Assembly: GCA_000435615.1 (NCBI GenBank)
Contig: FR881937.1
Location: 1 to 60,927, forward strand
From: Firmicutes bacterium CAG:238
GTDB lineage: Bacteria > Bacillota > Clostridia > Peptostreptococcales > Anaerovoracaceae
Reading direction: 5' to 3'
DNA: 60,927 nucleotides
Part shown: in pieces, positions 6,631 to 39,927 of the stretch
Layout of the letters: every line of letters begins with the position of its first letter
Numbering within the stretch: the first letter of the stretch is position 1
The notes under the pieces: model-generated
Seen by the model: only the letters and a program-made list of their open reading frames with translations
What the model was told of the DNA's origin: nothing
Databases searched by the model: none
Position numbers and translations under genes: made by a program

Positions 6631-6644
6631 TGGAGGAAAAGAAA

Positions 6645-8222: not shown

Positions 8223-8253
8223 AGACTGAAATAGATTAAAGGAGGGAGAGGAA

Positions 8254-9222: not shown

Positions 9223-9233
9223 GAGGTTTGGTT

Positions 9234-10133: not shown

Positions 10134-10143
10134 GAGGCCCGGC

Positions 10144-12106: not shown

Positions 12107-12125
12107 AAGCAAAAGGAGAGCGGTC

Positions 12126-13370: not shown

Positions 13371-13393
13371 AGTAAGAGCGGAGGAAACGGAAG

Positions 13394-14563
13394 ATGAAAA
13401 AAGATGCGGTTCAGCTTACGAAAGAGATGGTGAAAATTAAAAGCTATTCTTTCATGGAGAATCAAGAGGAAGAAATATCAAAATATATTTTGGATTTTTT
13501 CACGGAAAACGGAATAACATCGTACCGGACGGAAATCGTGCCGGGCAGATACAACACCTTTGCAATCCTGAAGGGAGAGGACTCGGAGAACAATCCGTCA
13601 CTTCTTCTCACGGGGCACATGGATACCGTTCCCGCATACGATTTCAAGGAGGCATTTACGGCACGGGAGGATGCGGATTATCTTTACGGGCGCGGAAGCT
13701 GCGACATGAAAGGCGCGCTCGCAGCGATGATGTGCGCCATGGTAAATATAAAGGAAAGCGGAACGAAGCTGAAAGGAGACTTGATTTTCTGCGGAGTTGC
13801 CGATGAAGAAGAAGCGGGAATCGGAACAGAGAGCTTGATTAAGACCGGGCCGGAAGCGACCTATGCGGTCATCGGGGAGCCTACCAAACTTGAAATCGCA
13901 TTGGGGCACAAAGGTCTCGAATGGATCGAGATATCCTTTAAAGGAAAGAAGGTTCACGGAGGCGCACAGAAGGACGGTGTGAATGCGATTATGATGGCAG
14001 GCAGATTTCTTCATAAACTGGAGACGGAATATCTGCCGAAGCTTGAAAAGCGGACGCATCCGGTTCTGGGAACCGCGACGCTGAATATCGGTACTATCAC
14101 AGGAGGTGACCAGCCGAGCACGGTTGCGGACAAGTGCAGCATAAGACTTGACAGAAGATGTCTTACGGATGAGACCATCGCACAGGTATATGAAGAACTT
14201 CAGGCGATTTGTGACGAACTACATGAAGAGGACCCGAAATTCGAGGCGGAAATCCGGGATGTGTTCAACGGCGAGACCATGCCGCATATTCCTTTCTGCA
14301 CAGACGGAAACTCGCCGCTTGTCAAGGCCGCAGAAAATGCGCTCGGCAGGGAAGGCATGACACCTGTGCTGACATGTTTTCCGGCATGGAGCGATGCGGG
14401 ATTCATGAATGCGCTTACAAAAAGCGAATGCATCGTGCTTGGACCGGGAGACCTATCCGTAGCACATTCGATACACGAAAAAATCAGCAAAAGGCAGCTT
14501 TTGAGTGCGGTTTCGGTATATGAAGAAATGGCAAGAGAAATCTGCAAAACGGTATGGACATAA
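13394..14563 (+). CDS. M20 ArgE/DapE-family deacylase
   Basis: GHMDTVP, GRGSCDMKG, ADEE, GEPT, GPG..AHSIHE. Confidence 0.88.
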   Translation: MKKDAVQLTKEMVKIKSYSFMENQEEEISKYILDFFTENGITSYRTEIVPGRYNTFAILKGEDSENNPSLLLTGHMDTVPAYDFKEAFTAREDADYLYGRGSCDMKGALAAMMCAMVNIKESGTKLKGDLIFCGVADEEEAGIGTESLIKTGPEATYAVIGEPTKLEIALGHKGLEWIEISFKGKKVHGGAQKDGVNAIMMAGRFLHKLETEYLPKLEKRTHPVLGTATLNIGTITGGDQPSTVADKCSIRLDRRCLTDETIAQVYEELQAICDELHEEDPKFEAEIRDVFNGETMPHIPFCTDGNSPLVKAAENALGREGMTPVLTCFPAWSDAGFMNALTKSECIVLGPGDLSVAHSIHEKISKRQLLSAVSVYEEMAREICKTVWT

Positions 14564-14575
14564 TGTGAAAACAGG

Positions 14576-14613
14576 CTCCGCAAGGCTGAAAACATGGCTT
14601 TGCGGAGTTTTTT
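14576..14613 (+). terminator. Rho-independent terminator of the peptide operon
   Basis: CTCCGCAAGGC...GCTTTGCGGAG followed by T-run. Confidence 0.8.
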
Positions 14614-14723
14614 CGACTTTTTTCGTGCTAAGAAATAATATTTTTAGTGATTTTTGTTTTTTGTTGTAGTATAATATATTGCGTATGATTTTATATAAAA
14701 TTTAGAAAGGAAGGTCTCACACA

Positions 14724-16034
14724 ATGAGTCAAAAACATTTACAAAGCATTCATGTGAGTCATTATAAGCACACTGCTGGATGTGCGACAGAGATAATGCC
14801 TACACCGGATGTTGTAAAGATTTCTATGTCTCAGCATATCGGAGCACCTTGTAAACCGCTGGTTGCAAAGGGCGACTATGTTAAAGTCGGCCAAAAGATC
14901 GGTGATACAGACGCTTTCGTAAGTGCACCTATCCACTCCGGTGTATCCGGCACGGTTACAGCCATTGAGGAGCAGAGAAATGCAGCAGGTGGATTTGAAA
15001 CGCTTGTTGTCATTGAAACAGACAAGAAACAAGAATTATCAGAGGAAGTTAAAGTTCCTGCAGAACCTAAGGATTTAGCCGAATTTGTAAAAGCGGTAAG
15101 AGAATCCGGACTGGTTGGTCTCGGAGGAGCTTCATTCCCGACACACATCAAATTTAACCCTAAGAATATAGATGATGTTCACGCTCTCATCGTAAACGCT
15201 GCAGAATGTGAACCGTTCATCACATCCGACCACAGATTAATGCTGGAAACACCGGATGCACTTCTTGACGGCTGCTTACTTATCATGAAGTATGTAGGAC
15301 TTGACAAAGGCTACATCGCAATTGAAGAAAACAAGCCGGATGCAATCGAGCTTCTTGACAAACGCATCAAAGAGCGCGGAATCACAAACATCGAAACATT
15401 CAAGCTTCAGGCAAGATACCCGAAGGGTGCTGAACGTGTACTGGTATATGAAATCACAGGCAAGACGATGGATGCAGGTGTTCTTCCTGCAGACATGGGC
15501 GTCATTCTTGACAACGTAACCACAGTTGCATTCGTTGGTCAGTACTTCAAGACAGGACGTCCTCTTACGACTAAGAGAGTAACTGTTGACGGCGATGCTG
15601 TTGCTCAGCCGAAGAACGTGATTGCACCAATCGGAACTTCCGTTCATGATGTAATCGAATTCTGCGGCGGCTATAAAGCTGAGCCTAAGAAGATTTTGAT
15701 GGGCGGACCTATGATGGGAAGAGCTATTTACTCCGACGCTATGCCGCTGGTAAAGAACAACAACGCAATCTTAGCGTTCTCCGGTCCGCAGAGCATTGTA
15801 AAAGAAGAAACAGCCTGCATCAACTGCGGAAGATGCCACCAGGCATGTCCGTTCAAGCTCATTCCGACAGCTTTGGCTAAGGCTTACGAAATGAGAGATG
15901 CACAGGCACTCAAAGACTTAAGGGTAATGCAGTGCATGAACTGCGGTTCCTGCTCCTACATCTGCCCTGCACACAGACCTTTGGGATTCATCAATACTTT
16001 AGGTAAAACAGTACTGAAGGAGGCGGGAATCTAA
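14724..16034 (+). CDS. rnfC: Rnf complex subunit C
   Basis: QHIGAP, GLVGLGGASFPTH, NAAECEP, MGGPMMG, two CxxCxxCxxxC motifs. Confidence 0.95.
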   Translation: MSQKHLQSIHVSHYKHTAGCATEIMPTPDVVKISMSQHIGAPCKPLVAKGDYVKVGQKIGDTDAFVSAPIHSGVSGTVTAIEEQRNAAGGFETLVVIETDKKQELSEEVKVPAEPKDLAEFVKAVRESGLVGLGGASFPTHIKFNPKNIDDVHALIVNAAECEPFITSDHRLMLETPDALLDGCLLIMKYVGLDKGYIAIEENKPDAIELLDKRIKERGITNIETFKLQARYPKGAERVLVYEITGKTMDAGVLPADMGVILDNVTTVAFVGQYFKTGRPLTTKRVTVDGDAVAQPKNVIAPIGTSVHDVIEFCGGYKAEPKKILMGGPMMGRAIYSDAMPLVKNNNAILAFSGPQSIVKEETACINCGRCHQACPFKLIPTALAKAYEMRDAQALKDLRVMQCMNCGSCSYICPAHRPLGFINTLGKTVLKEAGI

Positions 16035-17011
16035 TGGACAAGAAATATTATGACAATTTAATTGTATCCGCGTCTCCGCATCTCGTGACCGCAATGGATA
16101 CACAGAAGACGATGCTGATGGTTCTCATCGCACTCGTTCCTTCATTACTTGTTAGTACATATGTTTTCGGATTCAGAGTACTGATTCTGACTGCTGTATG
16201 TATCGCAGCTTCCATGTTCTTCGAATGGGCTTGGAACAAACTTATGAAGAGAAAGCAGACGGTATGCGACCTCAGTGCTGCACTTACAGGAACATTGATT
16301 GCATTCAATCTTCCTTCCGGACTTCCTTACTGGATTGCAATTGTTGGCTGCTTCGTAGCTATCATCGTAGTTAAACAGTTATTCGGAGGTATCGGCAAGA
16401 ACCTCGTTAACCCTGCAATCACAGCAAGAATCGTTCTGTTCATTTCCTTCGCAACGGAAATGACGACGTGGCCGCTTCCAAGAATGAACCAGACTGCAGA
16501 TGTCCTTACAGGCCCTACTCCGCTCGGAGTAATTCATGAAGGCGGACAGCTTCCTACAAACATGGAAATGTTCCTCGGATATATCGGCGGTTCCATGGGT
16601 GAAGTAAGTGCAATCGCACTTATCATCGGCGGACTTTTCCTTGTATGGAAAAAGATTATCAGCCCAATCATCCCTTGCTGCTTCATCGGTACGGTATTCG
16701 TATTCGCACTCATCTATTACAGTGCAACAGGAAACGGAGACGCTCTCCAGATGGCAGTCTTCCATATCCTTGCCGGCGGCGTAATGCTTGGTGCGATTTT
16801 CATGGCTACAGACTATGTAACTTCTCCGTTATTACCTGCAGGAAAAGTTGTATTCGGTATCGGATGCGGCGTTATCACAATGCTTATCAGACTGTTCGGT
16901 CAGTATCCGGAAGGCGTATCTTTCTCCATCCTGATTATGAACTGCCTGACACCGCTCATCGACAGCTTCTTCCAGAAGAGAATGTATGGAGGTGCTAAGA
17001 ATGAAAAGTAA
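16034..17011 (+). CDS. rnfD: Rnf complex subunit D
   Basis: SASPH, KQLFGGIGKN..NPA, FMN-Thr motif TGPTPL, FMATDYVTSP. Confidence 0.95.
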   Translation: MDKKYYDNLIVSASPHLVTAMDTQKTMLMVLIALVPSLLVSTYVFGFRVLILTAVCIAASMFFEWAWNKLMKRKQTVCDLSAALTGTLIAFNLPSGLPYWIAIVGCFVAIIVVKQLFGGIGKNLVNPAITARIVLFISFATEMTTWPLPRMNQTADVLTGPTPLGVIHEGGQLPTNMEMFLGYIGGSMGEVSAIALIIGGLFLVWKKIISPIIPCCFIGTVFVFALIYYSATGNGDALQMAVFHILAGGVMLGAIFMATDYVTSPLLPAGKVVFGIGCGVITMLIRLFGQYPEGVSFSILIMNCLTPLIDSFFQKRMYGGAKNEK

Positions 17012-17570
17012 TACATTTAAAGAATATATTCAGCCAAGCGTTGTTCTCGTAGCAATCTGTCTTGTAATCACATTTGCGCTTGCATATGTAAACTCGATTA
17101 CATCACCGATTATCGCTGAGAACACACGGAAAGCGGCTGAAGAAACAAGAAAAGTTCTTCTTCCTGCTGCTCAGTCATTCGAAGAATACACAGGCGACTT
17201 GGTTGAAGTTGAAAAAGATAAAATATATGTAGAAGACTGCTATATCGCAAATGACGGCGGAATGGTTGTTACCGTTAAATCCGCATCCTTTGGCGGCCTG
17301 CTTACTGAGATGGTTGGTATTGACGCAAACGGTGCCATCACCGGCGTTAAGGTAACCGCACATGCGGACACGAAGGGTCTTGGTACGAAAGCGCACGAAG
17401 GCAAATACGTTACACAGTATGAAGGCCTTGACACACTTGCATTTGCTGACAATGTAAAAGGCGACCCTGCTATAGAGCATGTCAGCGGTGCGACAATCTC
17501 CACAAACGGTGTTTACCAGGGAGTATGCGCTGCATTAAAGCAGTTTGAAGCAGTAGGAGGTGCTAACTAA
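17001..17570 (+). CDS. rnfG: Rnf complex subunit G
   Basis: N-terminal TM anchor, TKGLG, FMN-binding SGATIS. Confidence 0.92.
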   Translation: MKSNTFKEYIQPSVVLVAICLVITFALAYVNSITSPIIAENTRKAAEETRKVLLPAAQSFEEYTGDLVEVEKDKIYVEDCYIANDGGMVVTVKSASFGGLLTEMVGIDANGAITGVKVTAHADTKGLGTKAHEGKYVTQYEGLDTLAFADNVKGDPAIEHVSGATISTNGVYQGVCAALKQFEAVGGAN

Positions 17571-18331
17571 TGAAAGAAAAAGTAAATAGATTAGCCGTCC
17601 TCACGAAGGGCATCATTAAGGAAAACCCGAACCTTGTATTGCTGCTTGGTACTTGTCCGACACTCGCGACAACATCCTCTGCATTCAACGGTATGGGTAT
17701 GGGTATCGCAGCAACTGCAGTACTGATTTGCTCCAACATTGCAATTTCACTGCTCGCAAAGCTGATCCCCGATAAAGTAAGAATCCCGTGCTACATCGTA
17801 CTGATTGCAGGATTCGTAACACTCGTACAGTTCATCGTACAGGCATTCGCAGAACCGCTTTACAATTCACTCGGCGTGTTCCTGCCTCTTATTGTAGTTA
17901 ACTGTATCATCCTCGGAAGAGCCGAAATGTTTGCAAACAAGAACGGCGTTCTGGATTCCGCATTGGACGGTATCGGAATGGGTCTTGGTTTCACACTTTC
18001 CCTTACATGCATCGGTGCTGTAAGAGAAATCATCGGTAACGGAACGATTTTCTCCGGATTCTTCCTTGGCGGAGAGGACTTGGTTGCAAAAATTACAATT
18101 GCTATCCCGTTCATTTCCGAACATCCGATGCTCATCATCGCACTTGCTCCGGGCGGATTCTTCGTTTATGCGTGCGCTATCGCAGTTGTAAACAAGATTC
18201 TTGCTTCCAAGGGCAAGAAGCCGAGAGATTTCGGATGCCAGGGCTGCGCGCTTGCAAGCATGTGCAGCCAGGAAAAATGCCTGGAAGAATTAGACGGACT
18301 TAAGATTGAAACGAAAGGAGTTGAAGCATAA
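17570..18331 (+). CDS. rnfE: Rnf complex subunit E
   Basis: ENPNLVLLLGTCPTLA, PLIVVNCIILGRAE, APGGF. Confidence 0.95.
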   Translation: MKEKVNRLAVLTKGIIKENPNLVLLLGTCPTLATTSSAFNGMGMGIAATAVLICSNIAISLLAKLIPDKVRIPCYIVLIAGFVTLVQFIVQAFAEPLYNSLGVFLPLIVVNCIILGRAEMFANKNGVLDSALDGIGMGLGFTLSLTCIGAVREIIGNGTIFSGFFLGGEDLVAKITIAIPFISEHPMLIIALAPGGFFVYACAIAVVNKILASKGKKPRDFGCQGCALASMCSQEKCLEELDGLKIETKGVEA

Positions 18332-18906
18332 TGGCACAGTGGATTAGCATTTTAATCGCTATGATTTTGGTAAACAACTATGTATTGGCTCAATTCCTTG
18401 GTATCTGTCCATTCCTTGGCGTATCCAAGAAGTTAGATTCAGCGGTTGGTATGGGTGTTGCCGTTATTTTCGTAATGGTACTTGCAACTGCCGCTACATG
18501 GCCAATCATGCAGATTTTGAACGATTGGGAAATAGCGTACTTACAGACAATCGTATTTATCCTTATCATTGCTGCACTCGTACAGTTCGTAGAAATGGTA
18601 CTGAAGAAATTCATCCCGTCCTTACATAAAGCGCTCGGTGTATATCTTCCGCTTATCACTACAAACTGTGCAGTACTCGGTGTATGTATCAACAACATCG
18701 ACGCAGGATATAATTACGGATTAGCATTAATTAACTCTTTAGGCGCAGGTATCGGTTTCCTTCTTGCAATGGTTATCTTCTCCGGTATGAGAAGCAAACT
18801 TGAAGGAAATACTGACATTCCGGCACCTTTCCAGGGAGTACCTATCACTATGACTGCGGCCGCACTGTTATCCCTTGCATTCATGGGATTCGGCGGTTTA
18901 GTATAA
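18331..18906 (+). CDS. rnfA: Rnf complex subunit A
   Basis: NNYVLAQFLGICPFLGVS, YLPLITTNCAVLG. Confidence 0.95.
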   Translation: MAQWISILIAMILVNNYVLAQFLGICPFLGVSKKLDSAVGMGVAVIFVMVLATAATWPIMQILNDWEIAYLQTIVFILIIAALVQFVEMVLKKFIPSLHKALGVYLPLITTNCAVLGVCINNIDAGYNYGLALINSLGAGIGFLLAMVIFSGMRSKLEGNTDIPAPFQGVPITMTAAALLSLAFMGFGGLV

Positions 18907-18922
18907 GAAGGAGGCGAAAAAT

Positions 18923-19783
18923 ATGAATCCAATTTTAACACCTGTATTATTGGTAGTCGCAATGGGTCTTGTTTTCGCTGTGATCCTTACTATCGCAGCT
19001 AAGGTATTCTTCGTACCTGTTGACGAAACGGTTATCAAACTCAGAGAACAACTCCCGGGCGCAAACTGCGGCGGATGCGGATTCGCAGGATGTGACGACT
19101 ATGCATCAGCTCTTGCTGCTGATCCTGAGGGAGTTGGACCTAATAAATGTCCGGTAGGCGGAGCAGACTGTGCAGCAGCACTTGCTGCAATTTTAGGCAT
19201 TGAAGCCGGCTCTGCAGAACCACAGGTTGCAACTGTAATGTGTAACGGAAACTCACAGGCTGCTAAGTCCCTTCTTGAATATCAGGGTCTTACAACTTGT
19301 TCCGCAGCTTCCACACTTTACGGTGGAATGAACCAGTGTAAATACGGCTGCCTCGGTCTCGGAGACTGTACAAGAGCTTGTAATTTTGATGCAATCAAGA
19401 TTTGTGACGGTGTTGCCGTTGTAGCAAGAGACCTTTGCACAGGCTGCGGTGCATGCGCATCTGCATGTCCGAAGCATGTAATCAGAATTGCACCGGCTAA
19501 GAACAAAGTTGTTGTTCAGTGCCACTCGGAAGACAAAGGCGCTGCAACTCGCAAGGCATGCTCAAACGGATGTATCGCATGCGGAAAATGTACGAAAGTA
19601 TGTAAGTTCGAAGCAATCACCGTTGAAAACAATCACGCTTACATTGATCCTGAAAAATGTAAGAATTGCGGACTTTGCGCGAAAGAATGTCCTACAGGCG
19701 CTATCAATAACATGAGGGCGAAGAGAAAACCTGCTCAGGCTGCAGCTCCTGCACCAGCAGCAGAAGCGAAGGCTGAAGCTTAG
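18923..19783 (+). CDS. rnfB: Rnf complex subunit B (polyferredoxin)
   Basis: LPGANCGGCGFAGC and multiple CxxCxxCxxxC motifs. Confidence 0.95.
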   Translation: MNPILTPVLLVVAMGLVFAVILTIAAKVFFVPVDETVIKLREQLPGANCGGCGFAGCDDYASALAADPEGVGPNKCPVGGADCAAALAAILGIEAGSAEPQVATVMCNGNSQAAKSLLEYQGLTTCSAASTLYGGMNQCKYGCLGLGDCTRACNFDAIKICDGVAVVARDLCTGCGACASACPKHVIRIAPAKNKVVVQCHSEDKGAATRKACSNGCIACGKCTKVCKFEAITVENNHAYIDPEKCKNCGLCAKECPTGAINNMRAKRKPAQAAAPAPAAEAKAEA

Positions 19784-22809: not shown

Positions 22810-23349
22810 ATGAAGATTATAATGATGACAGGAAGTGCGCACAAGAACGGCACATCTGCGTATTTAGCAGAGCACTTCATGCGCGGCGCGAAGGAAGCGG
22901 GACATGAAGTTTCAAGATTTGACACGGCATTTATGGACATACATCCGTGCATCGGCTGCGACCACTGCCGCAGAAAGGACGGCGTGTGCGTATATCAGGA
23001 TGACATGAACCAAATCAATCCGGTGCTGAAAGAAGCCGATGCGGTGGTTTTTGTTTCGCCGATTTACTATTACGACATCAATGCGCAGCTGAAAACAGCG
23101 ATTGACCGCTTTTACGCAAGCAATGCGCAGATTCAGACCCCGAAGAAGGCAGCCCTGCTTTTAACCAGTGGGGATGCGGAATGGGATGTGACGGCAGGCG
23201 CAATCGGAACCTATAAGGGCATTTGCGGATATCTCGGCTGGTCGGACGCAGGCATTATCGCGGCAGGAGGATGCGGAGTACTCGAGGAAATCAAGCAGAC
23301 GGAATTCCCACAGAAGGCATATTTGCTCGGAAAAAATTTTGGAGCGTAA
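22810..23349 (+). CDS. Flavodoxin-family / NADPH-dependent FMN reductase (iron-sulfur flavoprotein-like)
   Basis: TGSAHKNGTS, PCIGCDHC...C...DDM, VSPIYY...LKTAIDR. Confidence 0.85.
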   Translation: MKIIMMTGSAHKNGTSAYLAEHFMRGAKEAGHEVSRFDTAFMDIHPCIGCDHCRRKDGVCVYQDDMNQINPVLKEADAVVFVSPIYYYDINAQLKTAIDRFYASNAQIQTPKKAALLLTSGDAEWDVTAGAIGTYKGICGYLGWSDAGIIAAGGCGVLEEIKQTEFPQKAYLLGKNFGA

Positions 23350-23355
23350 AAGTCT

Positions 23356-23371
23356 TGGCACACAATTTGCA
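23356..23371 (+). promoter_or_regulatory. sigma-54 (-24/-12) promoter
   Basis: TGGCAC-ACAAT-TTGCA, exact consensus and spacing, 40 nt upstream of the ATG at 23412. Confidence 0.85.
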
Positions 23372-23411
23372 TTTACTTGTTTCAAATAACTTCACAAGGA
23401 GGAAAAAAGTA

Positions 23412-24356
23412 ATGCTGAATCATAAGTTTGACATTGATGCAATCCCGGGAGAAAGATGGTTTCCAAAAGAGACAAGTTTTACGGAAGACATGAATGAATA
23501 CTGGGGAGACTGGGGAGTCTGCTCTGAGGTGGACACACTGAAGGCTGTTCTGATGCGCAGACCCGGCAAAGAAATCGAAAAATTCGATGCGCAGGCGGTG
23601 CGCTTTTCTGATGAACCGATTGATGTGGAGCTGATCAGAAAGCAACATGACGCTGTTGCGAAGATCTATACGGATTTTGGCGCGAAGGTATACTATGTTG
23701 AGGAACAGAGAGAGGACAGACCGAATGCGATTTTCTGCAGAGACCTGGTGTTTATGACGCCGGAAGGCGCGATTTTAGCAAGACCGGGCATGGCGGCAAG
23801 AAGAGGTGAAGAACGCTATGTCGCGCAGACACTTGCAAAAATCGGCGTTCCAATTGTGGCAACAGTCACAGGAGACGGTATTTTCGAAGGAGCATGCGGA
23901 ATGTGGGTAGACCGCCATACTGCAATTCTTTCAACGGGTTCAAGATGCAACGCAAGTGGCTATGCACAGGTGAAATACCAGCTTGAACGCATGGGAGTTG
24001 AGGTTTATCATATGCAGCAGCCTTACAGCAATATCCATATTGATGGGCTGATGAATGCAATCAGCGATGATATGGTTCTGGTTCATGCCGGTCAGGTACC
24101 GTATGACATTATCGATATGCTGAAAAAGAAAGGATATAAGATTCTTGAGGCACCGTCCAGAACGGAAGTCAGAGAGACATTCGGCATCAATTTTGTGACG
24201 CTGGAACCGGGACATATCGTAATGCCTGCGGGAAATCCGAGGACGCAGGAGCTTCTTGAGAAAAACGGTGTAAAGGTTGAAACGCCTGACATTTCAGAGA
24301 TTATGAAGGGCAGAGGGGCTTTGCACTGCATTACGGCATACCTGAAACGCGGATAG
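23412..24356 (+). CDS. Amidinotransferase/arginine deiminase/DDAH superfamily protein (paralogue 1)
   Basis: SEVDTLKAVLMRRPG, IFCRD, RRGEE, FEG, HIDG, catalytic Cys in GRGALHCIT. Confidence 0.88.
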   Translation: MLNHKFDIDAIPGERWFPKETSFTEDMNEYWGDWGVCSEVDTLKAVLMRRPGKEIEKFDAQAVRFSDEPIDVELIRKQHDAVAKIYTDFGAKVYYVEEQREDRPNAIFCRDLVFMTPEGAILARPGMAARRGEERYVAQTLAKIGVPIVATVTGDGIFEGACGMWVDRHTAILSTGSRCNASGYAQVKYQLERMGVEVYHMQQPYSNIHIDGLMNAISDDMVLVHAGQVPYDIIDMLKKKGYKILEAPSRTEVRETFGINFVTLEPGHIVMPAGNPRTQELLEKNGVKVETPDISEIMKGRGALHCITAYLKRG

Positions 24357-24379
24357 GATAGAATATAAGAGAGGAATCG

Positions 24380-25855
24380 ATGATCAGAAGATATGTGGAG
24401 CAGCTGCTCAGTATTTACAATTACATCGACGGCATTCTGGTGACAGACAGCAAAGGCTATATCGAGTATTTTGCGACTTACAGACCGGATGTAAACAAAT
24501 TAAAGGAAAAGAACATCCTGCATAAGCATATCACTGAGGTCTATCCGGAACTGACGGAAGAGACGAGCAGCATTATGAGGGTTTTGCGGAGCGGGGAATC
24601 GATTTCCAACGAATATCAGACGCTGAAAACCTATGACGGACAGAGCATTCGTGCGATTAACACGACGATGCCGATTAAGGAAAACAACCGAATCATAGGG
24701 GCAGTGGATGTTTCGCGTTACATTGATTCTCCGTACCGCAGACAGGACATTACGCTGGAGTCCAAGGAATTCAAGGCAAACAGCGGTGGACTTTATACCG
24801 TTGACGATATTATTACGGTGTCACCGCAGATGGAAGACATCAAGCAGAGAATTCCGCTGATTGCGGATACGGACTCGTCGGTGCTGATTTACGGTGAGAC
24901 GGGAACGGGCAAGGAACTTGTGGCGGAATCCATTCACACGGCAAGCAAGCGCGCGGGAAGGCGTTTTGTGGCGCAAAACTGCGCGGCAATACCGGGCAAT
25001 CTTCTCGAAAGTATCTTGTTCGGTACGAAGAAGGGCAGTTACACCGGAGCGGAAAACAAGCCCGGACTGTTCGAAATTGCAAACGGCGGGACTTTGTTCC
25101 TGGATGAAATCAACTCAATGGAGATGAATGTGCAGGCAAAGATTCTGAAGGCAATCGAAGAAAAACAGGTCGTGCGTCTGGGTGGTTATGAGCCAATCAA
25201 AACCGACATCAAAGTAATTTCAGCGGTCAACGAACGCCCGATGGACTGCGTGAAAGCAGGGAAACTGCGAGAGGATCTTTTTTACCGCTTGAGTGTGGTG
25301 CAGGTAAACATTCCGCCGCTCAGAGAGCGCAGAGACGACATTTTATATATGGCAAGCCGCTTTATCGAAGCTTACAATCAAAGCATGCATCGGGATATTA
25401 TGGGGCTTGATGAGCAGGTTGAAGAACTGTTTCGCAGCTATGCGTGGCCGGGCAATGTCCGCGAACTGAAAAACATCATCGAAGGGGCGTTTAATGTGGC
25501 GTCCACGCGTTTTATTCAGAAAAAAGACCTGCCGGAGTATTTGGCAAATCCCGTATGGCTTGAAGTTCCGCGGGAAGCGACCGAAGCCTTGGCAGCAGGA
25601 CGCGTGAAGGCCGGAGAAGGGGCAGGAAATGCATTTGCTGCGGAAGAAAGCGATACGAAGCGTTTCGGTGAATCGGAATGGGCTGAGGACATTTCCTTTG
25701 CCGGAAAGACGCTGAATCAGACCTTAGCAGAAGTAGAAGAAAGAATGATCCGAAATGCGCTTCGGGAGGCGGACAGTCTTGCGGGCGCAGCGCGGCTTTT
25801 AGGAATCACAAAGCAAAACCTTCATTACAAGCTCACAAAGTATAAAATAAAATAG
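24380..25855 (+). CDS. sigma-54 enhancer-binding activator, PAS-AAA+-HTH (RocR-like)
   Basis: PAS N-terminus, GETGTGKE, NCAAIP..LLESILFG, GSYTGA loop, FLDEI, LREDLFYRL, WPGNVREL, C-terminal HTH. Confidence 0.92.
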   Translation: MIRRYVEQLLSIYNYIDGILVTDSKGYIEYFATYRPDVNKLKEKNILHKHITEVYPELTEETSSIMRVLRSGESISNEYQTLKTYDGQSIRAINTTMPIKENNRIIGAVDVSRYIDSPYRRQDITLESKEFKANSGGLYTVDDIITVSPQMEDIKQRIPLIADTDSSVLIYGETGTGKELVAESIHTASKRAGRRFVAQNCAAIPGNLLESILFGTKKGSYTGAENKPGLFEIANGGTLFLDEINSMEMNVQAKILKAIEEKQVVRLGGYEPIKTDIKVISAVNERPMDCVKAGKLREDLFYRLSVVQVNIPPLRERRDDILYMASRFIEAYNQSMHRDIMGLDEQVEELFRSYAWPGNVRELKNIIEGAFNVASTRFIQKKDLPEYLANPVWLEVPREATEALAAGRVKAGEGAGNAFAAEESDTKRFGESEWAEDISFAGKTLNQTLAEVEERMIRNALREADSLAGAARLLGITKQNLHYKLTKYKIK

Positions 25856-25869
25856 GTAAACAAGAAGAA

Positions 25870-25934
25870 AGTACGCTGTAAAAAAATCTTTACTAAATAG
25901 TAAAAAAATTATTACGGCGTACTGTTTTTTTTAC
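25870..25934. promoter_or_regulatory. Putative upstream activating sequences (three 16-mers) inside a long imperfect palindrome
   Basis: GTAAAAAAATCTTTAC (25878), GTAAAAAAATTATTAC (25900) and inverted GTACTGTTTTTTTTAC (25919), about 85-140 nt upstream of the -24 box. Confidence 0.6.
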
Positions 25935-25984
25935 CGAAACTCGTGTAAACGTAAAGAAGTTGTAGGGAATTTGCGGCGGCATAT

Positions 25985-26013
25985 CGAAAATAAGCGAAAA
26001 TAAGCGAAAAAAA
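25985..26013 (+). repeat. 10-bp tandem repeat
   Basis: CGAAAATAAG x2 plus partial CGAAAAAAA directly before the sigma-54 box. Confidence 0.7.
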
Positions 26014-26016
26014 TTT

Positions 26017-26032
26017 TGGCATATTTATTGCT
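26017..26032 (+). promoter_or_regulatory. sigma-54 (-24/-12) promoter
   Basis: TGGCAT-ATTTA-TTGCT with correct GG/GC spacing, upstream of the ATG at 26080. Confidence 0.85.
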
Positions 26033-26079
26033 TTATAGTTATGCAAGAAGTATCAGAAGAAAAGACAGGAGGTTTAATT

Positions 26080-27024
26080 ATGAATGAAAAGGTGAGAGAC
26101 ATCGACGCCCTTGCCGGTGAAAGATGGTTTCCTCTGGAAACAAGTATTGTTGATGATATGAAAAATCTTTGGGGAGACTGGGGCGTTTGCTCCGAGGTTG
26201 ACACTTTGAGAGATGTCATTATGAGACGTCCGGGTAAAGAGATCGAAAACTTCGACTGGGAAGCGGCGCGCTTCAAGGCTCCGATCGACCCGGAAAAATT
26301 CAGAAAGCAGCATGACGGATTGGCGCAGGTTTACAAAGACCACGGCGTGAGAGTGCATTATATTGAAGAGCAGAGAGAGGACAGACCAAACGCGTTGTTC
26401 TGCAGAGACCTTTTGCTGATGACACCGGAAGGCGCAATCGTAACCAGACCGGCGATGGAGGCCAGAAGAGGGGAAGAACGCTACATGGCAAAGGCTTTGG
26501 CAGAGCTTGGAGTTCCGATTATCCGTACGATATGCGGTGATGCAACCTTTGAAGGTGCGATGGGCCTTTGGATTGACAGACACACGATTGTGCTGGCATC
26601 CGGCGTACGTACAAACCGCAGCGGTTATGAGATGGTAGAACAGGAACTGCGCCGCATGGGCGTGACTGACATTCTGCACATGCAGATCCCTTACGGACAT
26701 GCACACATTGACGGACTGCTGAATATGGCCAGCCACGATGTCGCGATGATTCACGCATCTCAGGTTCCTTACGATGTATGCGATGCGCTGAAGAAAAAAG
26801 GCATTAAGCTTCTGGAATGCCCGTCCAGAATCGAAGCAAAGGAATCCTTCGCGATTAACTTCGTCGCAATCGAACCGGGAACGATCGCAATGCCTGCGGG
26901 AAATCCTCGTTCCCAGGAACTTTTGGAAAAGAACGGAATTAAAGTTATTCCTGTTGAGTTTGATGAAATCATGAAAGGCTTCGGTGCAATTCACTGCTGT
27001 ACCGCATTCCTGAAGCGCGGATAA
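26080..27024 (+). CDS. Amidinotransferase/arginine deiminase/DDAH superfamily protein (paralogue 2)
   Basis: LFCRD, RRGEE, FEG, HIDG, GFGAIHCCT; long blocks identical to paralogue 1. Confidence 0.88.
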   Translation: MNEKVRDIDALAGERWFPLETSIVDDMKNLWGDWGVCSEVDTLRDVIMRRPGKEIENFDWEAARFKAPIDPEKFRKQHDGLAQVYKDHGVRVHYIEEQREDRPNALFCRDLLLMTPEGAIVTRPAMEARRGEERYMAKALAELGVPIIRTICGDATFEGAMGLWIDRHTIVLASGVRTNRSGYEMVEQELRRMGVTDILHMQIPYGHAHIDGLLNMASHDVAMIHASQVPYDVCDALKKKGIKLLECPSRIEAKESFAINFVAIEPGTIAMPAGNPRSQELLEKNGIKVIPVEFDEIMKGFGAIHCCTAFLKRG

Positions 27025-27036
27025 GGAGGAAAAGCG

Positions 27037-28764
27037 ATGGAACTTTACGAAAAATTGAAAGCAGAAATTTCCCTGGACAATATTTACAAAGACATGGCTT
27101 ACCTGATCGATGAGGTGGGCGAACGCCTTTCAGGCTCCAAGGAAATGGAAAAAGCAACGGAATATATATGCAAAAGACTGAACGAAAATATCGGAGAAGG
27201 CAGAATCGACCACTTTCCGATGTACATGAGCTATCCGGGAGAAGCGAGCCTCAGCGTCCTCAGCCCGAAAACCTATGAAATCCCGGCAAGACCTGTCTGC
27301 CACATCGATTCGACTCCGGCGGAAGGCCTTGAAGGTGAAGTACTCTATCTGGGAACCGGCGGTTACGACCGTTACGAAGGCGTTGACGCAAGGGGCAAAA
27401 TCATTCTCACGGACATGAACTGGAGTCCGGCACGTCCGGAAAAAGCAAGAATTGCCCAAGAGATGGGCGCAAAAGCTCTCATCATCATGAACTGGGGTGC
27501 TTCGGACAGCGACCTGATTCAGATGGGCGCGGTAAAAACCCAGTGGGGCAACCCGACACCGGAAAACGAGAACGAAATTCTTCACATAACGACAATCAGC
27601 ATCTCCAGAAAAGAGGGAGAAGCACTGCAGGCGCTTTGCGAGCAGGGAAAAGTCACCGTAAACATCAAGGCAAACGCAAGCCGCGAATGGATTACAGCAA
27701 GTCAGCCAATCGGAAGAGTGCGCGGCGGCAAGTCTAACGGCGAATACATTTTGATGGGAAGCCATGTTGACGCATGGGGAAAATCCGCTATCTGCAATGC
27801 ATCGGGAGACGCTTTGAACCTGGAAATCGCGAGAATCTGCTATGAAAACCGCGCAGAAATGAAGCGTGATGTGGAATTTGTTTTCTGGGACGGACACGAA
27901 ATCGCGGAAGGCGGCGGCTCGACATGGTACGCGGACCGCTACTGGCAGGATATGACGGAAAACTGCGTGGGCTATCTGAATTTGGATAATCTGGCAATTC
28001 AGGGAACGACGGTTCCGGGTGTGGAAGGACAACCGGAAATGAAGGATCTTTTGACAGAAGCTATTCAGGCGATCTTCGGTGAAGAGGGCGAATGGCATCA
28101 GGCGTACAAGGGCGGCGGAGATTCTTCCTTCTTCGGCGTAGGTGTACCATACGCATCCTTTGCGACGGAGTATACGGAGGAAAGGTTGAAAGAGCTGAAT
28201 TACGCATTTTACAGCCCTTGGCTGCACACACCGAACGACACCATCGATAAAATCGACCGGGAGCTTTTGCAAAAACACGCGGAATACTTCCTCTATGTGA
28301 TGAACAAACTCGCAAACAGCGATTTCGTCGGCTACAATATGAAGGCTTTGGCAGACGATGTGAAATGGCAGTGGGGCAAAGCAAAAGAAAATGCAGGAAA
28401 GGCACTTCCTTTGATTGCGGATCTTGACGACGTGGTTGAGAAATACGCATCGAAGATGGAGGCTTTACAGGCAATAAAGGAATCCGGAAAGGATGCGGAG
28501 CTGTTCAATGAGCTTGCGCTGGCATGCGAACGTCAGACCTCAATGTTCCGCTGCTACTCCGGAAAGTACGGACAGGATGCATGCGGATCGTACCTGACCG
28601 AGCAGCCGATTCCGGCTCTCGACCGGGCAATGCGTAAATACAACGCGGCTGAAGAAGGCTCCTATGACTATTACCTTTGGGAGACGGAGATTATGAGAAT
28701 TGCCAATATGATTTTTGATGAACTGAACATCAGTTTAAAGTATATGCAGCTTGCAGGGAGATAG
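27037..28764 (+). CDS. M28-family metallohydrolase with PA domain, atypical ligands
   Basis: RLSGS, PA insert (RGKIIL...EKARIAQEMGA), GSHVDAW, SAICNASG, FWDGHE, LNLD, LHTPND. Confidence 0.75.
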   Translation: MELYEKLKAEISLDNIYKDMAYLIDEVGERLSGSKEMEKATEYICKRLNENIGEGRIDHFPMYMSYPGEASLSVLSPKTYEIPARPVCHIDSTPAEGLEGEVLYLGTGGYDRYEGVDARGKIILTDMNWSPARPEKARIAQEMGAKALIIMNWGASDSDLIQMGAVKTQWGNPTPENENEILHITTISISRKEGEALQALCEQGKVTVNIKANASREWITASQPIGRVRGGKSNGEYILMGSHVDAWGKSAICNASGDALNLEIARICYENRAEMKRDVEFVFWDGHEIAEGGGSTWYADRYWQDMTENCVGYLNLDNLAIQGTTVPGVEGQPEMKDLLTEAIQAIFGEEGEWHQAYKGGGDSSFFGVGVPYASFATEYTEERLKELNYAFYSPWLHTPNDTIDKIDRELLQKHAEYFLYVMNKLANSDFVGYNMKALADDVKWQWGKAKENAGKALPLIADLDDVVEKYASKMEALQAIKESGKDAELFNELALACERQTSMFRCYSGKYGQDACGSYLTEQPIPALDRAMRKYNAAEEGSYDYYLWETEIMRIANMIFDELNISLKYMQLAGR

Positions 28765-28783
28765 ATCCCGGGAGGAAAGAAAA

Positions 28784-30487
28784 ATGAATAAGAAGATATC
28801 AGGAAGAAGATGGGTGCTTGCGGCAGTTTTCGTAATCGGAATGCTGGCGTTCACAGGCATGGCTTTCGCAGAAGGAGAGGATGCGCCGATTCACTACGGT
28901 GTTTTATCTTTGGTTGTGCCATTAATTGCTATCGTTTTGTCATTTATTACCAGACAAGTAATTCTTTCGCTGGCAACTGCGGTGTTCGTGGGTGCAGTGA
29001 TTTTAAACGGCGGAAATGTTTTCCATGGTTTCCTCAGAATGTGTGACCAATACATCGTCGGCACGGTGACGGATAGCTGGAATGTAACCTTAATGCTGTT
29101 CATCCTTTCAGTCGGAGGACTGATTGCGGTTATGGCGCGCATGGGCGGCACACAGGCGATGGCACTGGCTATGGCAAAAAAATCCAAAAACACAAAACAC
29201 GCTTTGGTTGTAACCTGGATTATGGGTATTATCATATTCTTTGAGGATATGGCAAACTCCTTAATCGTAGGTCCTACGATGAGACCGGTAACGGACGAGC
29301 TTCGGATTTCCAGAGAAAAACTTTCCTATGTTATCGACTCGACGGCAGGTCCTGTAACCGATATGGCATTCATTTCATCATGGGTTGCTTATGAAATCGG
29401 TATGATCGGCATCGCGCTGACAACAGCAGGTCTTGCGGTTGAAAACACTTACGGCATTTTCCTTGAGACGGTTCCGTATCGTTTCTATAACATCTTTGCG
29501 ATTGCTTTGGTAATTATTATCATTTTAACGCAAAAAGACTACGGTCCGATGTACGCGGCTGAAAAACGTGCCCGCCTTTCCGGCAATCTGGTAAATGAAG
29601 GCTCGACTCCGATGATGAGCAAAGAGCTTGATGCCATGAATGTAAAGGAAGGCACACCACTTCGTATCTGCAATGCAGTCGTACCAATTGTAACTTTTAT
29701 TGTGATTACTCTTTTTGCGATGTATTACACAGGCGGTGGTTTTGACAATACATTCAGCATCGAAACCATCAAAAATGCCTTTGGTGACTGCGATTCCGCT
29801 TCAAGTATTTTCTATGCGGTTATCATTGCTTCCGTTGTCAGCATTGTGATGGCTGTAGCTCAAAAAATTATGACACTTAGAGAAGCAATTGATGTTTGGA
29901 TGAACGGCTGCAAAGAGCTGCTTTTGACAGTTACGATTCTGCTGTTTGCATGGACATCCGGCAGCATCATGTCCGAACTCGGCACAGGTGCTTATATCGC
30001 TGAACTGGTTGGCGACACAGTTCCGGGAGTGATTCTTCCGGTTATCATCTTCGCGGTTTCCTGCCTGGTTTCCTTCTCAACAGGAACCTCCTACGGCACG
30101 ACTGCAATCATGATTCCGATTGCCTTCCCTCTGGCTATGGGCATAAACGGCGGCGTTCTGGATTCTTATGCTGTTCTGACTATCGCAGCAGTAACATGCG
30201 GCGCAATCTTCGGCGACCACTGCTCACCAATCTCTGATACGACAATCATGTCCTCCATGGGATCGGCGGCAGACCTTATGGACCATGTTCGTACACAGAT
30301 TCCGTATGCGGTTACGGCAGCAATTGTTGCAGCGGTATGCGGCTTCATTCCGGCGGCTCTCGGCGTTTCGGCATGGATCTGTCTTCCAATCGGTATCGTT
30401 GTTCTGTACTTGGTTGTAAGATTCCTCGGAAAGAGCACGAACGAAGAAGACCTGAAGAAAGAAGCTGCGCAGGAAGCGGCAGCGTAA
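28784..30487 (+). CDS. NhaC-family Na+/solute transporter
   Basis: ISREKLSYVIDST, FSTGTSYGT, GAIFGDHCSPISDTTIMSS, DHVRTQIPYA. Confidence 0.88.
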   Translation: MNKKISGRRWVLAAVFVIGMLAFTGMAFAEGEDAPIHYGVLSLVVPLIAIVLSFITRQVILSLATAVFVGAVILNGGNVFHGFLRMCDQYIVGTVTDSWNVTLMLFILSVGGLIAVMARMGGTQAMALAMAKKSKNTKHALVVTWIMGIIIFFEDMANSLIVGPTMRPVTDELRISREKLSYVIDSTAGPVTDMAFISSWVAYEIGMIGIALTTAGLAVENTYGIFLETVPYRFYNIFAIALVIIIILTQKDYGPMYAAEKRARLSGNLVNEGSTPMMSKELDAMNVKEGTPLRICNAVVPIVTFIVITLFAMYYTGGGFDNTFSIETIKNAFGDCDSASSIFYAVIIASVVSIVMAVAQKIMTLREAIDVWMNGCKELLLTVTILLFAWTSGSIMSELGTGAYIAELVGDTVPGVILPVIIFAVSCLVSFSTGTSYGTTAIMIPIAFPLAMGINGGVLDSYAVLTIAAVTCGAIFGDHCSPISDTTIMSSMGSAADLMDHVRTQIPYAVTAAIVAAVCGFIPAALGVSAWICLPIGIVVLYLVVRFLGKSTNEEDLKKEAAQEAAA

Positions 30488-30570
30488 GGCAGTGCGCAGA
30501 GCGCTGACTGACCTTGCGGACGCCGCAGGTGCTTGCTCGAAAATAGAACAATCAAATACGATTAAGGCAA

Positions 30571-30614
30571 ACATAATCAACTCCAAAGTTCATTAACTTT
30601 GGAGTTAATTATGT
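30571..30614. terminator. Long hairpin between convergent genes
   Basis: 20-bp arms ACATAATCAACTCCAAAGTT / AACTTTGGAGTTAATTATGT, one mismatch, 4-nt loop. Confidence 0.75.
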
Positions 30615-38394: not shown

Positions 38395-39927
38395 ATGGCA
38401 GAAACCAAAAAGGCTGAACGTCTGCCTAATAAGTTTGAGGCTTGTTTACCGGTTCTCGTGCTGTTAGGCCTGATGGTAGCAAATTCCGTATTAGAGTGGG
38501 GAAATGACCCGCACTTATACGTATTGATGGCAGTTATTACCGTTGTGCTTGTTGCAAAACGCTGCGGCATATGCTATAAGGATATGTTAGCCGCAGGTTT
38601 CGACTCGCTTTTTCAGTCACTTGAAGCAATGTTCATTCTGTTATTCGTAGGATGCTTGGTTGGTACATTTGAATATGCCGGAACAATTCCTGCCCTTGTA
38701 TATTACGGATTGAAGTTATTCACGCCGGCTATTTTCTTACCGGCAGTATGCTTGCTTTGCGCAATCGTAGCGATGGCATTGGGTTCCGCTTATACAGTAA
38801 GTGCAACATTAGGTATTGCGTTCCTGACAATCGGTGCAACCATGGGTGTTAACCCGGCACTCATCTGCGGTGCGGTTCTCTCCGGTGCTTGCACAGGCGA
38901 CAAATTCTCCCCGTTATCCGATACAACAAACCTTGCGTCTGCATCTGCACAGACAGGATTATTTGACCACGTTAAGGCAATGATCGGAACCACATTCCCG
39001 ACATTCCTTATCGGTTTCTTAATCTTCTGCGGAATTTCATTTGCAGGTGAAACAGGTGCTTACGATCCGGAACTCGTAGACGGATTATCCAATGCAATCA
39101 AGGATCACTTCCAGTACATGAGCCCTGTTCTGTTAATCCCTGTACTTGTTATCCTTGCAGTTTCCGTATTACAGATATCTGCAATTCCTGGTATCCTGCT
39201 CGTTGTATTAACAGCCGGTATCTTCATGGTTATCTTCCAGGGTGCAGGCTTCCCTGAATTCATTTCAGCGGCACACTACGGTTACTCCGCAGAAACAGGC
39301 AACGAATTAGCTGACCAGTTACTTAACAGAGGTGGAATGGATTCCATGCTGTGGACCATCAACATGGCATTGATCGCAATCGGTTTCGGCGGCATGTATG
39401 CTAGAGCAGGCTGTGTTGAATCCTTATTAGGAAACCTCATCAAGGATATCAGAACACCGTTCCAGATGGCTGTTGCGGTTATCTGTACCGCAATGTTCAC
39501 AATCCTGACGATGTGCGACCAGTACTTAAGTTTAATCATTCCTGCAACCATGTACAAAGAAAAATTCGACGAACTCGGACTTTCCAGAAACATGTTGTCA
39601 AGATGTATGGAAGACGGCGGAACATTGTTCTCACCACTGGTTCCATGGTCAACTTGCGGTGTATACCACTCCGGCATGTTAGGTGTTCCTACATTATCAT
39701 ATTTACCGTACTGCTTCGTAAACATTTTGAACCCACTGATTTCCATGGGTACGGCAGCTATCGGCGGCAACATCCTGTATGCTGACGGTTCCAAGACCGG
39801 ATTCTTCGGCGGCAAGGTAAAGAAAGGCCACTTCGTTGCGGCGGCTCCGGAAGAAGCACACGAAATCGCTATGAAGGCTCTGGAAGCAAAGAGAGCAAGC
39901 GGCGAATACAAGCAGATTAGTGCTTAA
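38395..39927 (+). CDS. NhaC-family transporter (MleN/amino-acid type)
   Basis: AGTIPAL.YYG, GDKFSPLSDTTNLAS, RGGMDSM, LSRCMEDGGT..SPLVPW. Confidence 0.88.
   Translation: MAETKKAERLPNKFEACLPVLVLLGLMVANSVLEWGNDPHLYVLMAVITVVLVAKRCGICYKDMLAAGFDSLFQSLEAMFILLFVGCLVGTFEYAGTIPALVYYGLKLFTPAIFLPAVCLLCAIVAMALGSAYTVSATLGIAFLTIGATMGVNPALICGAVLSGACTGDKFSPLSDTTNLASASAQTGLFDHVKAMIGTTFPTFLIGFLIFCGISFAGETGAYDPELVDGLSNAIKDHFQYMSPVLLIPVLVILAVSVLQISAIPGILLVVLTAGIFMVIFQGAGFPEFISAAHYGYSAETGNELADQLLNRGGMDSMLWTINMALIAIGFGGMYARAGCVESLLGNLIKDIRTPFQMAVAVICTAMFTILTMCDQYLSLIIPATMYKEKFDELGLSRNMLSRCMEDGGTLFSPLVPWSTCGVYHSGMLGVPTLSYLPYCFVNILNPLISMGTAAIGGNILYADGSKTGFFGGKVKKGHFVAAAPEEAHEIAMKALEAKRASGEYKQISA

Follow-up and report, generated by a model that had tools for sequence, protein, structure and literature searches.

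Organization and regulation of the locus

We analyzed a 60,927-nucleotide stretch of DNA from Firmicutes bacterium CAG:238 (contig FR881937.1), hereafter the window, in which gene calls place five co-directional genes on the plus strand within positions 23356-30606. Two of them encode paralogous 314-residue enzymes of the pentein fold, here called ParA (23412-24356) and ParB (26080-27024), which can be described as “mini-ADI” proteins because they resemble a shortened arginine deiminase (ADI, EC 3.5.3.6). The gene of a sigma-54 enhancer-binding activator protein (EBP) of 491 residues (24380-25855) separates them. ParB is followed after 12 nt by an M28 hydrolase of 575 residues (27037-28764) and, 19 nt further on, by a 567-residue membrane carrier of the NhaC family (PF03553; 28784-30487, with an alternative TTG start at 28751). 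A hairpin with a 12-bp stem at 30579-30606, found by a consensus scan only, lies between the convergent NhaC and ferredoxin genes and likely marks the end of the operon. The ParA/ParB pair is present in the genome as a single copy.

The pattern TGGCAYN5TTGCW, which describes the -24/-12 elements recognized by sigma-54, occurs exactly twice when both strands of the 60927 bases are scanned, against an expectation of 0.26, and only 1 of 100 shuffled controls reached two matches. Both matches are on the coding strand: P1 (TGGCAC-N5-TTGCA, TGGCACACAATTTGCA, 23356-23371) lies 56 nt ahead of the start codon of ParA, and P2 (TGGCAT-N5-TTGCT, TGGCATATTTATTGCT, 26017-26032) lies 63 nt ahead of that of ParB and precedes the ParB-M28-NhaC genes; between element and gene there are 40-50 nt in each case. 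The first-pass annotation of this DNA, which had assigned one -24/-12 promoter to each paralogue, was therefore right as to their number and place. The genome also encodes rpoN (462.6 bits, cut-off 277) and about ten further EBP genes, so that GG at -24, GC at -12, the right spacing, the sigma factor and a cognate EBP, features expected of a sigma-54 operon, are all present.

The activator has an N-terminal sensor region without a Pfam match, followed by Sigma54_activat (AAA+), AAA lid and HTH_8 domains. Among curated models PrdR fits it best, with 329 bits and a cut-off of 795, and on its domains it is best classed as a generic sigma-54 EBP. The earlier description of a RocR-like activator between the paralogues is thus correct for the position of the gene and unsupported as to its kinship. 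The EBP gene is probably read through from P1, since it begins 23 nt behind ParA with no terminator-like site in between.

To place these elements in context, a relaxed -24/-12 element was sought within 200 nt upstream of the genes in a sample of 53 related loci from public genomes; the homologues as a whole number roughly 2100. The element was present upstream of ParA in 29 of 33 evaluable loci and upstream of ParB in 22 of 51, and it preceded none of 43 EBP genes, 19 M28 genes and 24 NhaC genes, which suggests that the last two ride on the promoter of ParB. A P2-type element is kept ahead of ParB wherever the EBP gene separates the two paralogues, while loci with the layout EBP-ParA-ParB have one promoter, ahead of ParA. 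The arrangement and its promoters recur in dozens of genomes, and the first-pass reading of a sigma-54 catabolic locus holds to that extent; the locus is conserved and built on an uncharacterised pentein branch.

Within the 224 nt that separate the EBP gene from ParB, three GTAAA-N6-TTTAC palindromes spaced about 21 nt apart (25878-25934) form an array 83-139 nt upstream of P2. With at most one substitution, the same palindrome recurs upstream of ParB promoters (9 of the 16 examined) and more rarely of ParA promoters (3 of 19), where it is confined to the EBP-first layout. We consider it a likely, though putative, binding site of the EBP. A tandem repeat, GCGAAAATAA GCGAAAATAA, is located between the candidate activator sites and P2 (25976-25995), and one of its 10-nt units is missing in contigs from two RNA-labelled sequencing runs (X1 and X3), from which it follows that the distance between site and promoter at P2 varies among strains. 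Two short repeats, AGGGMATTTGCGG and CGRAAAAAATTTTGG, are common to both promoter regions and may be there by chance. The upstream neighbor of P1 is an FMN-reductase gene (22810-23349), whose stop codon lies 6 nt before the promoter. We rejected it as a member of the locus: it precedes P1 and co-occurs only in near-identical genomes (L002, L003 and L022).

The closest regulatory parallel is provided by the sigma-54 regulons that serve the fermentation of amino acids in Clostridiales (PMC6615313), such as OrdR (ord-ort-ora-orr-nhaC), PrdR and LeuR, which share with our locus an EBP beside a -24/-12 promoter and an operon with an nhaC-type carrier. The target enzymes here are unlike those of every regulon listed in the accessible part of that work. 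Its main text contains none of the words amidinotransferase, dimethylarginin-, citrulline and peptidase, and its supplement may list this locus. No described operon matching this locus was found in the portion of the literature covered by our search.

Two pentein clades with the residues of arginine deiminase

ParA and ParB are 64% identical over their full 314-residue length (BLASTP E 6e-159). As the first-pass annotation had stated, they share WGDWGVCSEVDTL, EEQREDRPNA, ARRGEERY and MPAGNPR and differ in the loop of the catalytic His, which reads QPYSNIHIDG in ParA and IPYGHAHIDG in ParB. Both match the Pfam families PF02274 (ADI) and PF19420 (DDAH_eukar), and both score far below the cut-offs of the curated models. 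Against the NCBIfam model for arcA (TIGR01078/NF002381, cut-off 489.1 bits), ParA obtains 57.3 and ParB 67.9 bits. The DDAH models (NF045658, NF045659 and NF045660, cut-offs 300-450) do not claim them either, the best score being that of the Streptomyces-type model (98.6 and 75.4 bits, cut-off 340), and the ArgZ-type arginine dihydrolase model (NF052232, cut-off 450) gives 33.3 and 36.0 bits. Among solved structures, the best matches in sequence are the Pseudomonas DDAH entries 3rhy and 1h70 (E ~1e-11). The predicted structure of ParB (pLDDT 88.2) is closest to ADI, with 2aci, 2a9g and 4bof as top Foldseek hits (E ~1e-20; 16-17% identity), followed by 2-nitroimidazole nitrohydrolase (NnhA), DDAH and amidinotransferases, all at 16-22% identity.

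A profile alignment with the ArcA of the same genome (hhalign probability 99.2%) brings the ADI motifs into register: PN..F.RD (N104, F107, R109, D110), RRGEE, FEGA (E158), xRxN (R177), H209-x-D211 and H305-C306. Nine residues, D110, R129, R130, E158, R177, H209, D211, H305 and C306, are invariant in 30 sequences of the family, at least 90% of which also have N104 and F107. The complete ADI set is thus present, namely the catalytic C306, H209 and E158, the guanidinium-binding D110 and D211, and the carboxylate-binding R129/R130 and R177, which upholds the earlier statement that the Cys/His/acid residues are retained. The same alignment leaves a gap of about 85 residues opposite ArcA residues ~83-150, where the helical insert of ADI lies between the first two propeller modules. 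The paralogues, which had been noted before to be shorter than ArcA, have 314 residues to its 414, and they further differ from it in forming two diverged paralogues and in being under sigma-54 control. According to the consulted text of PMC11659421, ADIs carry an alpha-helical domain inserted in the propeller, and a similarity network of the superfamily contains large uncharacterised groups beside ADI, DDAH and the fusions of ADI with cyclodeaminase. Judged by sequence, each of the paralogues corresponds to the core of an ADI minus its helical insert, and both belong to an uncharacterised branch of the penteins.

In ADI and DDAH we take two Asp to bind both terminal nitrogens of the substrate, two Arg its alpha-carboxylate and an Asn its alpha-amino group. 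With the ADI residues kept, and with these roles, one would expect the enzymes to act on a free alpha-amino acid whose guanidino group is unsubstituted. Peptides of arginine, proposed earlier as direct substrates, agree poorly with this, since the conserved residues for the carboxylate and the alpha-amino group point to a free amino acid. Methylarginines, another earlier proposal, also look unlikely. With DDAH (PF19420) the paralogues share a single-domain pentein of similar size, the Cys-His-acid set and the two carboxylate-binding Arg; they lack its active site open on one terminal nitrogen, and in both of them Asp211 replaces the Lys of the Pseudomonas enzyme (3rhy and 3bpb in the alignment of ParB), Asn104 its Asp and Arg109 its Glu.

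In a tree of 87 sequences, ParA (n=36) and ParB (n=49) are each monophyletic, with SH-like supports of 0.985 and 0.706, and identity within the clades ranges from 73 to 93%. At ten positions each clade has a fixed residue of its own (at least 90% in each), and six of these flank catalytic residues, five around His209 (203, 206, 207, 208 and 214) and one next to Cys306 (307), so the contrast beside the catalytic His that was first seen in one pair of sequences extends to the clades. Position 207 is an additional His in ParB. A basic residue, Arg or Lys, stands five positions ahead of the catalytic Cys in ParA, in agreement with ArcA, and is replaced in ParB by an aromatic or another non-basic one.

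Of 38 evaluable loci, 27 have a ParA gene no more than 3.5 kb upstream of ParB, and where the order is EBP-ParA-ParB the gap between the paralogues is often as short as 10-35 nt. Such linkage would be expected if the paralogues formed an obligate hetero-oligomer, and a conserved N-terminal arm (DIDAxPGERWFP), for which residues 1-18 of the monomer model have a pLDDT below 50, could pack on a partner. We nevertheless regard an obligate complex as very unlikely, although the first-pass annotation had suggested that a heteromer might form: each protein carries a complete catalytic set, and ParB occurs without ParA in the remaining 11 of the 38 loci, including the full operons L037 and L047 (both EBP-ParB-M28-NhaC), L009 and L015, and likewise in loci of the Opp type. 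The depth of the clades, the 27 linked loci and the 11 with ParB alone indicate instead an old pair that is usually kept together and whose members have diverged at the active site.

A tblastn match in L044 (~8995-10050) corresponds to a second ParB copy of the sister genome with an in-frame stop, which may be a pseudogene or an assembly error. There was no sign of a plasmid-borne ParB: none of the 17 plasmid records matched reaches 60% identity, and the 10 listed have 27.6-34.1%.

An altered GCPII-like hydrolase and its exchangeable context

The hydrolase downstream of ParB combines Peptidase_M28 (PF04389, 69.7 bits compared with a threshold of 21.3) with a PA domain (29.8, threshold 23.9) and a C-terminal helical domain. 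Alignment to the PA-domain aminopeptidases 2ek8, 3iib and 6hc6 indicates that the ligands H243, E288, D317 and H397 are kept and that the canonical co-catalytic site is not, with Cys253 in place of the bridging Asp and His287 in place of the general-base Glu. Both substitutions are found in all 19 M28 sequences of these loci, which share 58-99% identity, and the hydrolase is atypical, as had been recognized. Its nearest solved sequences are also PA-domain aminopeptidases, one of them deposited with “Arg Lys Leu preference”.

A search of 1.84 billion representative proteins returned 318 relatives at E <=1e-30. In the 132 full-length relatives that were aligned, position 287 is always His; Cys253 is present in 25, the rest having mostly Asp, and at position 288 Glu (70 sequences) and Ser (58) predominate over Thr (4). 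The 318 relatives, among them P0121-P0270, represent a large prokaryotic family of proteins of about 580 residues with PA, M28 and helical domains.

The model of the hydrolase (pLDDT 95) matches the whole chain of GCPII, GCPIII, NAALADase-L and the transferrin receptor (TMq 0.78-0.82), with 3fee, 4twe and 2c6c as top Foldseek hits (E ~1e-34, ~710 alignment columns). The protease-like, apical PA and helical domains are thus united in one chain, which is the architecture of the MEROPS M28B group as given in the part of PMC9768917 available to us. From that group the protein differs in its low identity (~16%), in Cys253 and His287, and in lacking a membrane anchor, its N-terminal sequence having no signal or membrane segment. 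With a whole-chain match to this fold and no signal or anchor, it is a cytoplasmic prokaryotic member of the GCPII architecture, whose altered metal site is conserved. A limited search of the literature, as far as its text was accessible, found no report on prokaryotic enzymes of this architecture with an altered site.

The carrier is assigned at the level of the family only (PF03553, 183.5 bits compared with 23). It scores 42.3 bits with the model for the NhaC Na+/H+ antiporter (TIGR00931, cut-off 370) and 35.6 bits with that for ArcD (NF052307, cut-off 650), and its gene is the next one after M28 in all related loci with enough sequence. A bona fide NhaC is encoded elsewhere in the window (38395-39924; 373.5 bits with TIGR00931), with ArcD as its second-best match (335.9 bits). 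Positions 6573-19780 hold an Opp/Dpp-type ABC system, a PepV-like M20 dipeptidase, an ArgE/DapE deacylase and an Rnf complex (rnfCDGEAB). These surroundings fit a fermenter of peptides and amino acids.

The genes that accompany ParB vary among the loci. Where at least 1.5 kb of sequence follows ParB (47 genes), its immediate downstream neighbor is M28 in 18 cases, Amidohydro_3 in 8, the binding protein of an Opp-type system in 5, NhaC of a second type in 4, and a carrier of the APC or NhaC kind in 2. The Amidohydro_3-type locus is a cluster of eight genes that includes two EBPs, a second Amidohydro_3, a CE4 deacetylase and an APC permease, and two such loci (L035 and L044) contain a racemase-like gene. 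Another family has the order EBP, ParB-like gene, a 532-residue protein, an MBL hydrolase and Opp. The 532-residue protein (L077, 5531-7126, with a match in L076) has no Pfam or NCBIfam hit and stands between the ParB-like and MBL-fold genes of this EBP-controlled Opp operon. ParB is the constant part of all module types, while the hydrolase and the carrier change.

One such change has occurred inside a single species. In the sister strain L002, whose flanks are 95-96% identical in DNA, a different gene of the NhaC family (L002, 9953-11812) stands in place of positions 27033-29885 of the window, which cover M28 and ~1.1 kb of NhaC from its 5' end; what is left of the original carrier is a 258-residue remnant. 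The event amounts to a cassette swap. Four other loci also lack any hydrolase.

The minimal recurring unit consists of an EBP, one or two pentein genes and an NhaC-family carrier and has no hydrolase (L002, L005, L028, L031, L050 and G118). This unit, together with the complete set of ADI residues, would suit a simpler explanation, according to which ParA and ParB are redundant arginine deiminases acting on free arginine that the NhaC-family carrier takes up, and M28 is a general peptidase or a non-catalytic passenger. In the portion of PMC6615313 seen by us, carriers of the NhaC family are predicted arginine/ornithine transporters in the sigma-54 regulons of Clostridiales, which points in the same direction. 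Redundancy accords poorly, however, with two distinct clades that have kept fixed active-site differences since an old duplication, with the repeated linkage of ParB to different amide hydrolases, and with the strict conservation of the altered M28 site, which indicates that this protein is under selection for a function. We judge this explanation distinctly unlikely. Release of one common amino acid from different conjugates would account for a deiminase that stays the same beside hydrolases and carriers that vary.

Arginine metabolism of the carrier organisms and proposed function

ParA/ParB genes were found in 11 of 151 sampled genomes of the family of the window, in 10 of its 121 genera, and in 6 of 399 sampled genomes of the class. 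Emergencia, Eubacterium nodatum, Ihubacter and Aminipila, members of the carrier family, are asaccharolytic fermenters of amino acids. In the family of the window, arcA is present in 10 of the 11 carriers and in 51 of the 140 non-carriers, counts for which we claim no statistic because the genomes are related. The first-pass annotation had reported the ADI pathway genes to be absent; this is true of the locus, where arcB, arcA and arcC are not found, and not of the genome, which has an arcB-arcA-arcC cluster on another contig with an ArcA of 514.9 bits (cut-off 489.1). In view of this normal cluster, the locus is an add-on and not the ADI pathway itself. The idea that ParA and ParB replace a missing ArcA was rejected, given its presence in nearly all carrier genomes.

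The same genome has an ornithine cyclodeaminase of the ArgZ C-terminal type, on another contig beside a PutP-like carrier, and the ornithine racemase Orr. Elsewhere, in L048 and L049, a ParB-like gene adjoins such a cyclodeaminase that is encoded as a free-standing gene (587.8 bits compared with 440), and L044 contains an Orr-like gene. A cyclodeaminase of the ArgZ C-terminal type is cited as dependent on a nickel pincer in the accessible part of PMC13524815. The pair of L048 and L049 (6972-9730 in the latter) lies beside an ABC transporter of the branched-chain type and is a split counterpart of the ArgZ/AgrE fusion. Taken together, the frequency of arcA in carriers, the cyclodeaminase and Orr-like genes at these loci, and the arcBAC cluster, cyclodeaminase and Orr of the genome of the window link ParA and ParB to the metabolism of arginine and ornithine.

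Our preferred explanation, which we hold tentatively and with somewhat less than even confidence, is that the locus is an inducible catabolic module for a guanidino amino acid of the arginine type, supplied to the cell in the form of a small conjugate or peptide. The activator would sense a signal, bind the GTAAA-N6-TTTAC array and open both sigma-54 promoters, P1 serving ParA and probably the activator itself, and P2 serving the three genes ParB, M28 and NhaC. The carrier would import the substrate, and the GCPII-like M28 protein, acting as a cytoplasmic exopeptidase, would free the terminal amino acid. ParA and ParB would then attack its unsubstituted guanidino group by the Cys-His-acid mechanism of ADI and release ammonia. 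The product would be citrulline, or ornithine if a second hydrolysis takes place, and would enter arcB/arcC or the routes of ornithine. Of this scheme, the genes, the promoters and their conservation, the residues and the folds are observed, while the substrate, the sequence of events, the product and the activator site are inferred from them.

That a second hydrolysis occurs is the essence of one alternative, in which the two paralogues jointly, or ParB by itself, would be an arginine dihydrolase that converts arginine through citrulline into ornithine, CO2 and two ammonia, bypassing ArcB and ArcC; ParA may carry out the first hydrolysis and ParB the second. Such a division of work would agree with the residue at Cys-5, basic in ParA as in ArcA and aromatic in ParB, and with the extra His207 of ParB. 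It would also give a meaning to the loci L048 and L049, where the ParB-like gene beside the cyclodeaminase has no adjoining ParA and the ArgZ fusion appears as two genes, to the Orr-like gene of L044, and to the genome G059, which has a ParA-type gene and in which neither arcA nor arcC turned up. However, L048 and L049 hardly differ from each other and count as one observation, and the locus of G059 is incomplete, its contig ending 163 nt past ParA. The likeness to ArgZ/AgrE is limited to that pair of loci: the scores of ParA and ParB with the models of these enzymes (NF052231 and NF052232) are 29-36 bits, compared with cut-offs of 450-1025, and the locus of the window has no cyclodeaminase. 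Both guanidinium-binding Asp are kept in both paralogues, which argues against a ParB that meets only a neutral ureido group, and a fermenter with arcC would pay dearly for giving up the ATP of carbamate kinase. We therefore consider a dihydrolase unlikely.

A second alternative keeps the architecture and changes the amino acid attacked, which could be homoarginine, canavanine, hydroxy- or methyl-arginine, or D-arginine. This would explain why dedicated enzymes exist, under purifying selection, in a genome with ArcA, ArcB and ArcC, why most of the fixed differences flank the catalytic His and Cys, as expected for an altered specificity, and why a racemase-like gene appears in L035 and L044. 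The pockets of the two enzymes speak for arginine itself in that they retain the ADI residues for the alpha-amino group, the alpha-carboxylate and both terminal nitrogens, and lack the Lys, Asp and Glu of the DDAH-type enzymes that act on methylated substrates; the sequence is silent on chain length and stereochemistry. In our opinion such a substrate is rather unlikely.

Several observations weigh against the inducible module for an arginine-type amino acid that we prefer. ArcA could handle plain arginine, which leaves the need for ParA and ParB unexplained, and one carrier genome, G059 (97% complete, fragmented), has neither arcA nor arcC among its recovered genes. The hydrolase is not needed for ParA and ParB to be useful, as the cassette swap of L002 and the four other loci without a hydrolase indicate, and its peptidase chemistry is not assured with His287 in place of Glu. 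Neither the ParA/ParB clade nor this M28 subfamily has a member with a tested function or a curated model that claims it, and the labels in the ESM Atlas are the automatic “amidinotransferase family” and “M28 family peptidase”. As for regulation, the GTAAA-N6-TTTAC palindrome is absent within 300 nt of P1 and from all 12 ParA promoters in the ParA-EBP-ParB layout; because the FMN-reductase gene ends immediately before P1, an activator site for this promoter would have to lie inside its coding region or at a distance. Finally, three RNA-labelled libraries from three studies contain short, low-depth contigs of 95-99% identity that cover parts of all five genes, one of them bridging the ParB/M28 junction (26461-27141). 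As assembled contigs, in which DNA carry-over is possible and which give neither starts nor levels of transcripts, they are not proof of transcription.

Significance for amino-acid fermenting anaerobes

The breakdown of arginine by anaerobes of the gut and the mouth shapes their output of ammonia, ornithine, polyamines and short-chain acids. It is in this context that the compact operon described here is of interest, since it offers two enzyme families without a tested member, a pentein clade between ADI and DDAH and a large, prokaryotic branch of the GCPII/transferrin-receptor fold in which the metal site is altered. The combination of a constant deiminase with a changing hydrolase and carrier provides a comparative handle on the range of substrates, and cultured carriers exist, such as Emergencia timonensis (locus L020), in which the function is directly testable.

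A more far-reaching interpretation, which we offer as a rather doubtful one, is that the locus represents a new class of guanidino-hydrolases, a mini-ADI devoid of the helical domain, in which the two old paralogues perform distinct steps and have as a partner an enzyme of the GCPII type with a Cys/His metal site, and which together make up an unrecorded route for harvesting arginine from peptides or conjugates. The steps may be, for example, deimination followed by hydrolysis of the ureido group to ornithine, or an attack on the C-terminal arginine of a peptide that has been imported. If this were true, the M28 protein would be the first prokaryotic GCPII-type enzyme with a defined role, the release of the modified residue, and the amino-acid fermenters of the gut and the mouth would possess a route that is plug-compatible with other cassettes of hydrolases and transporters.

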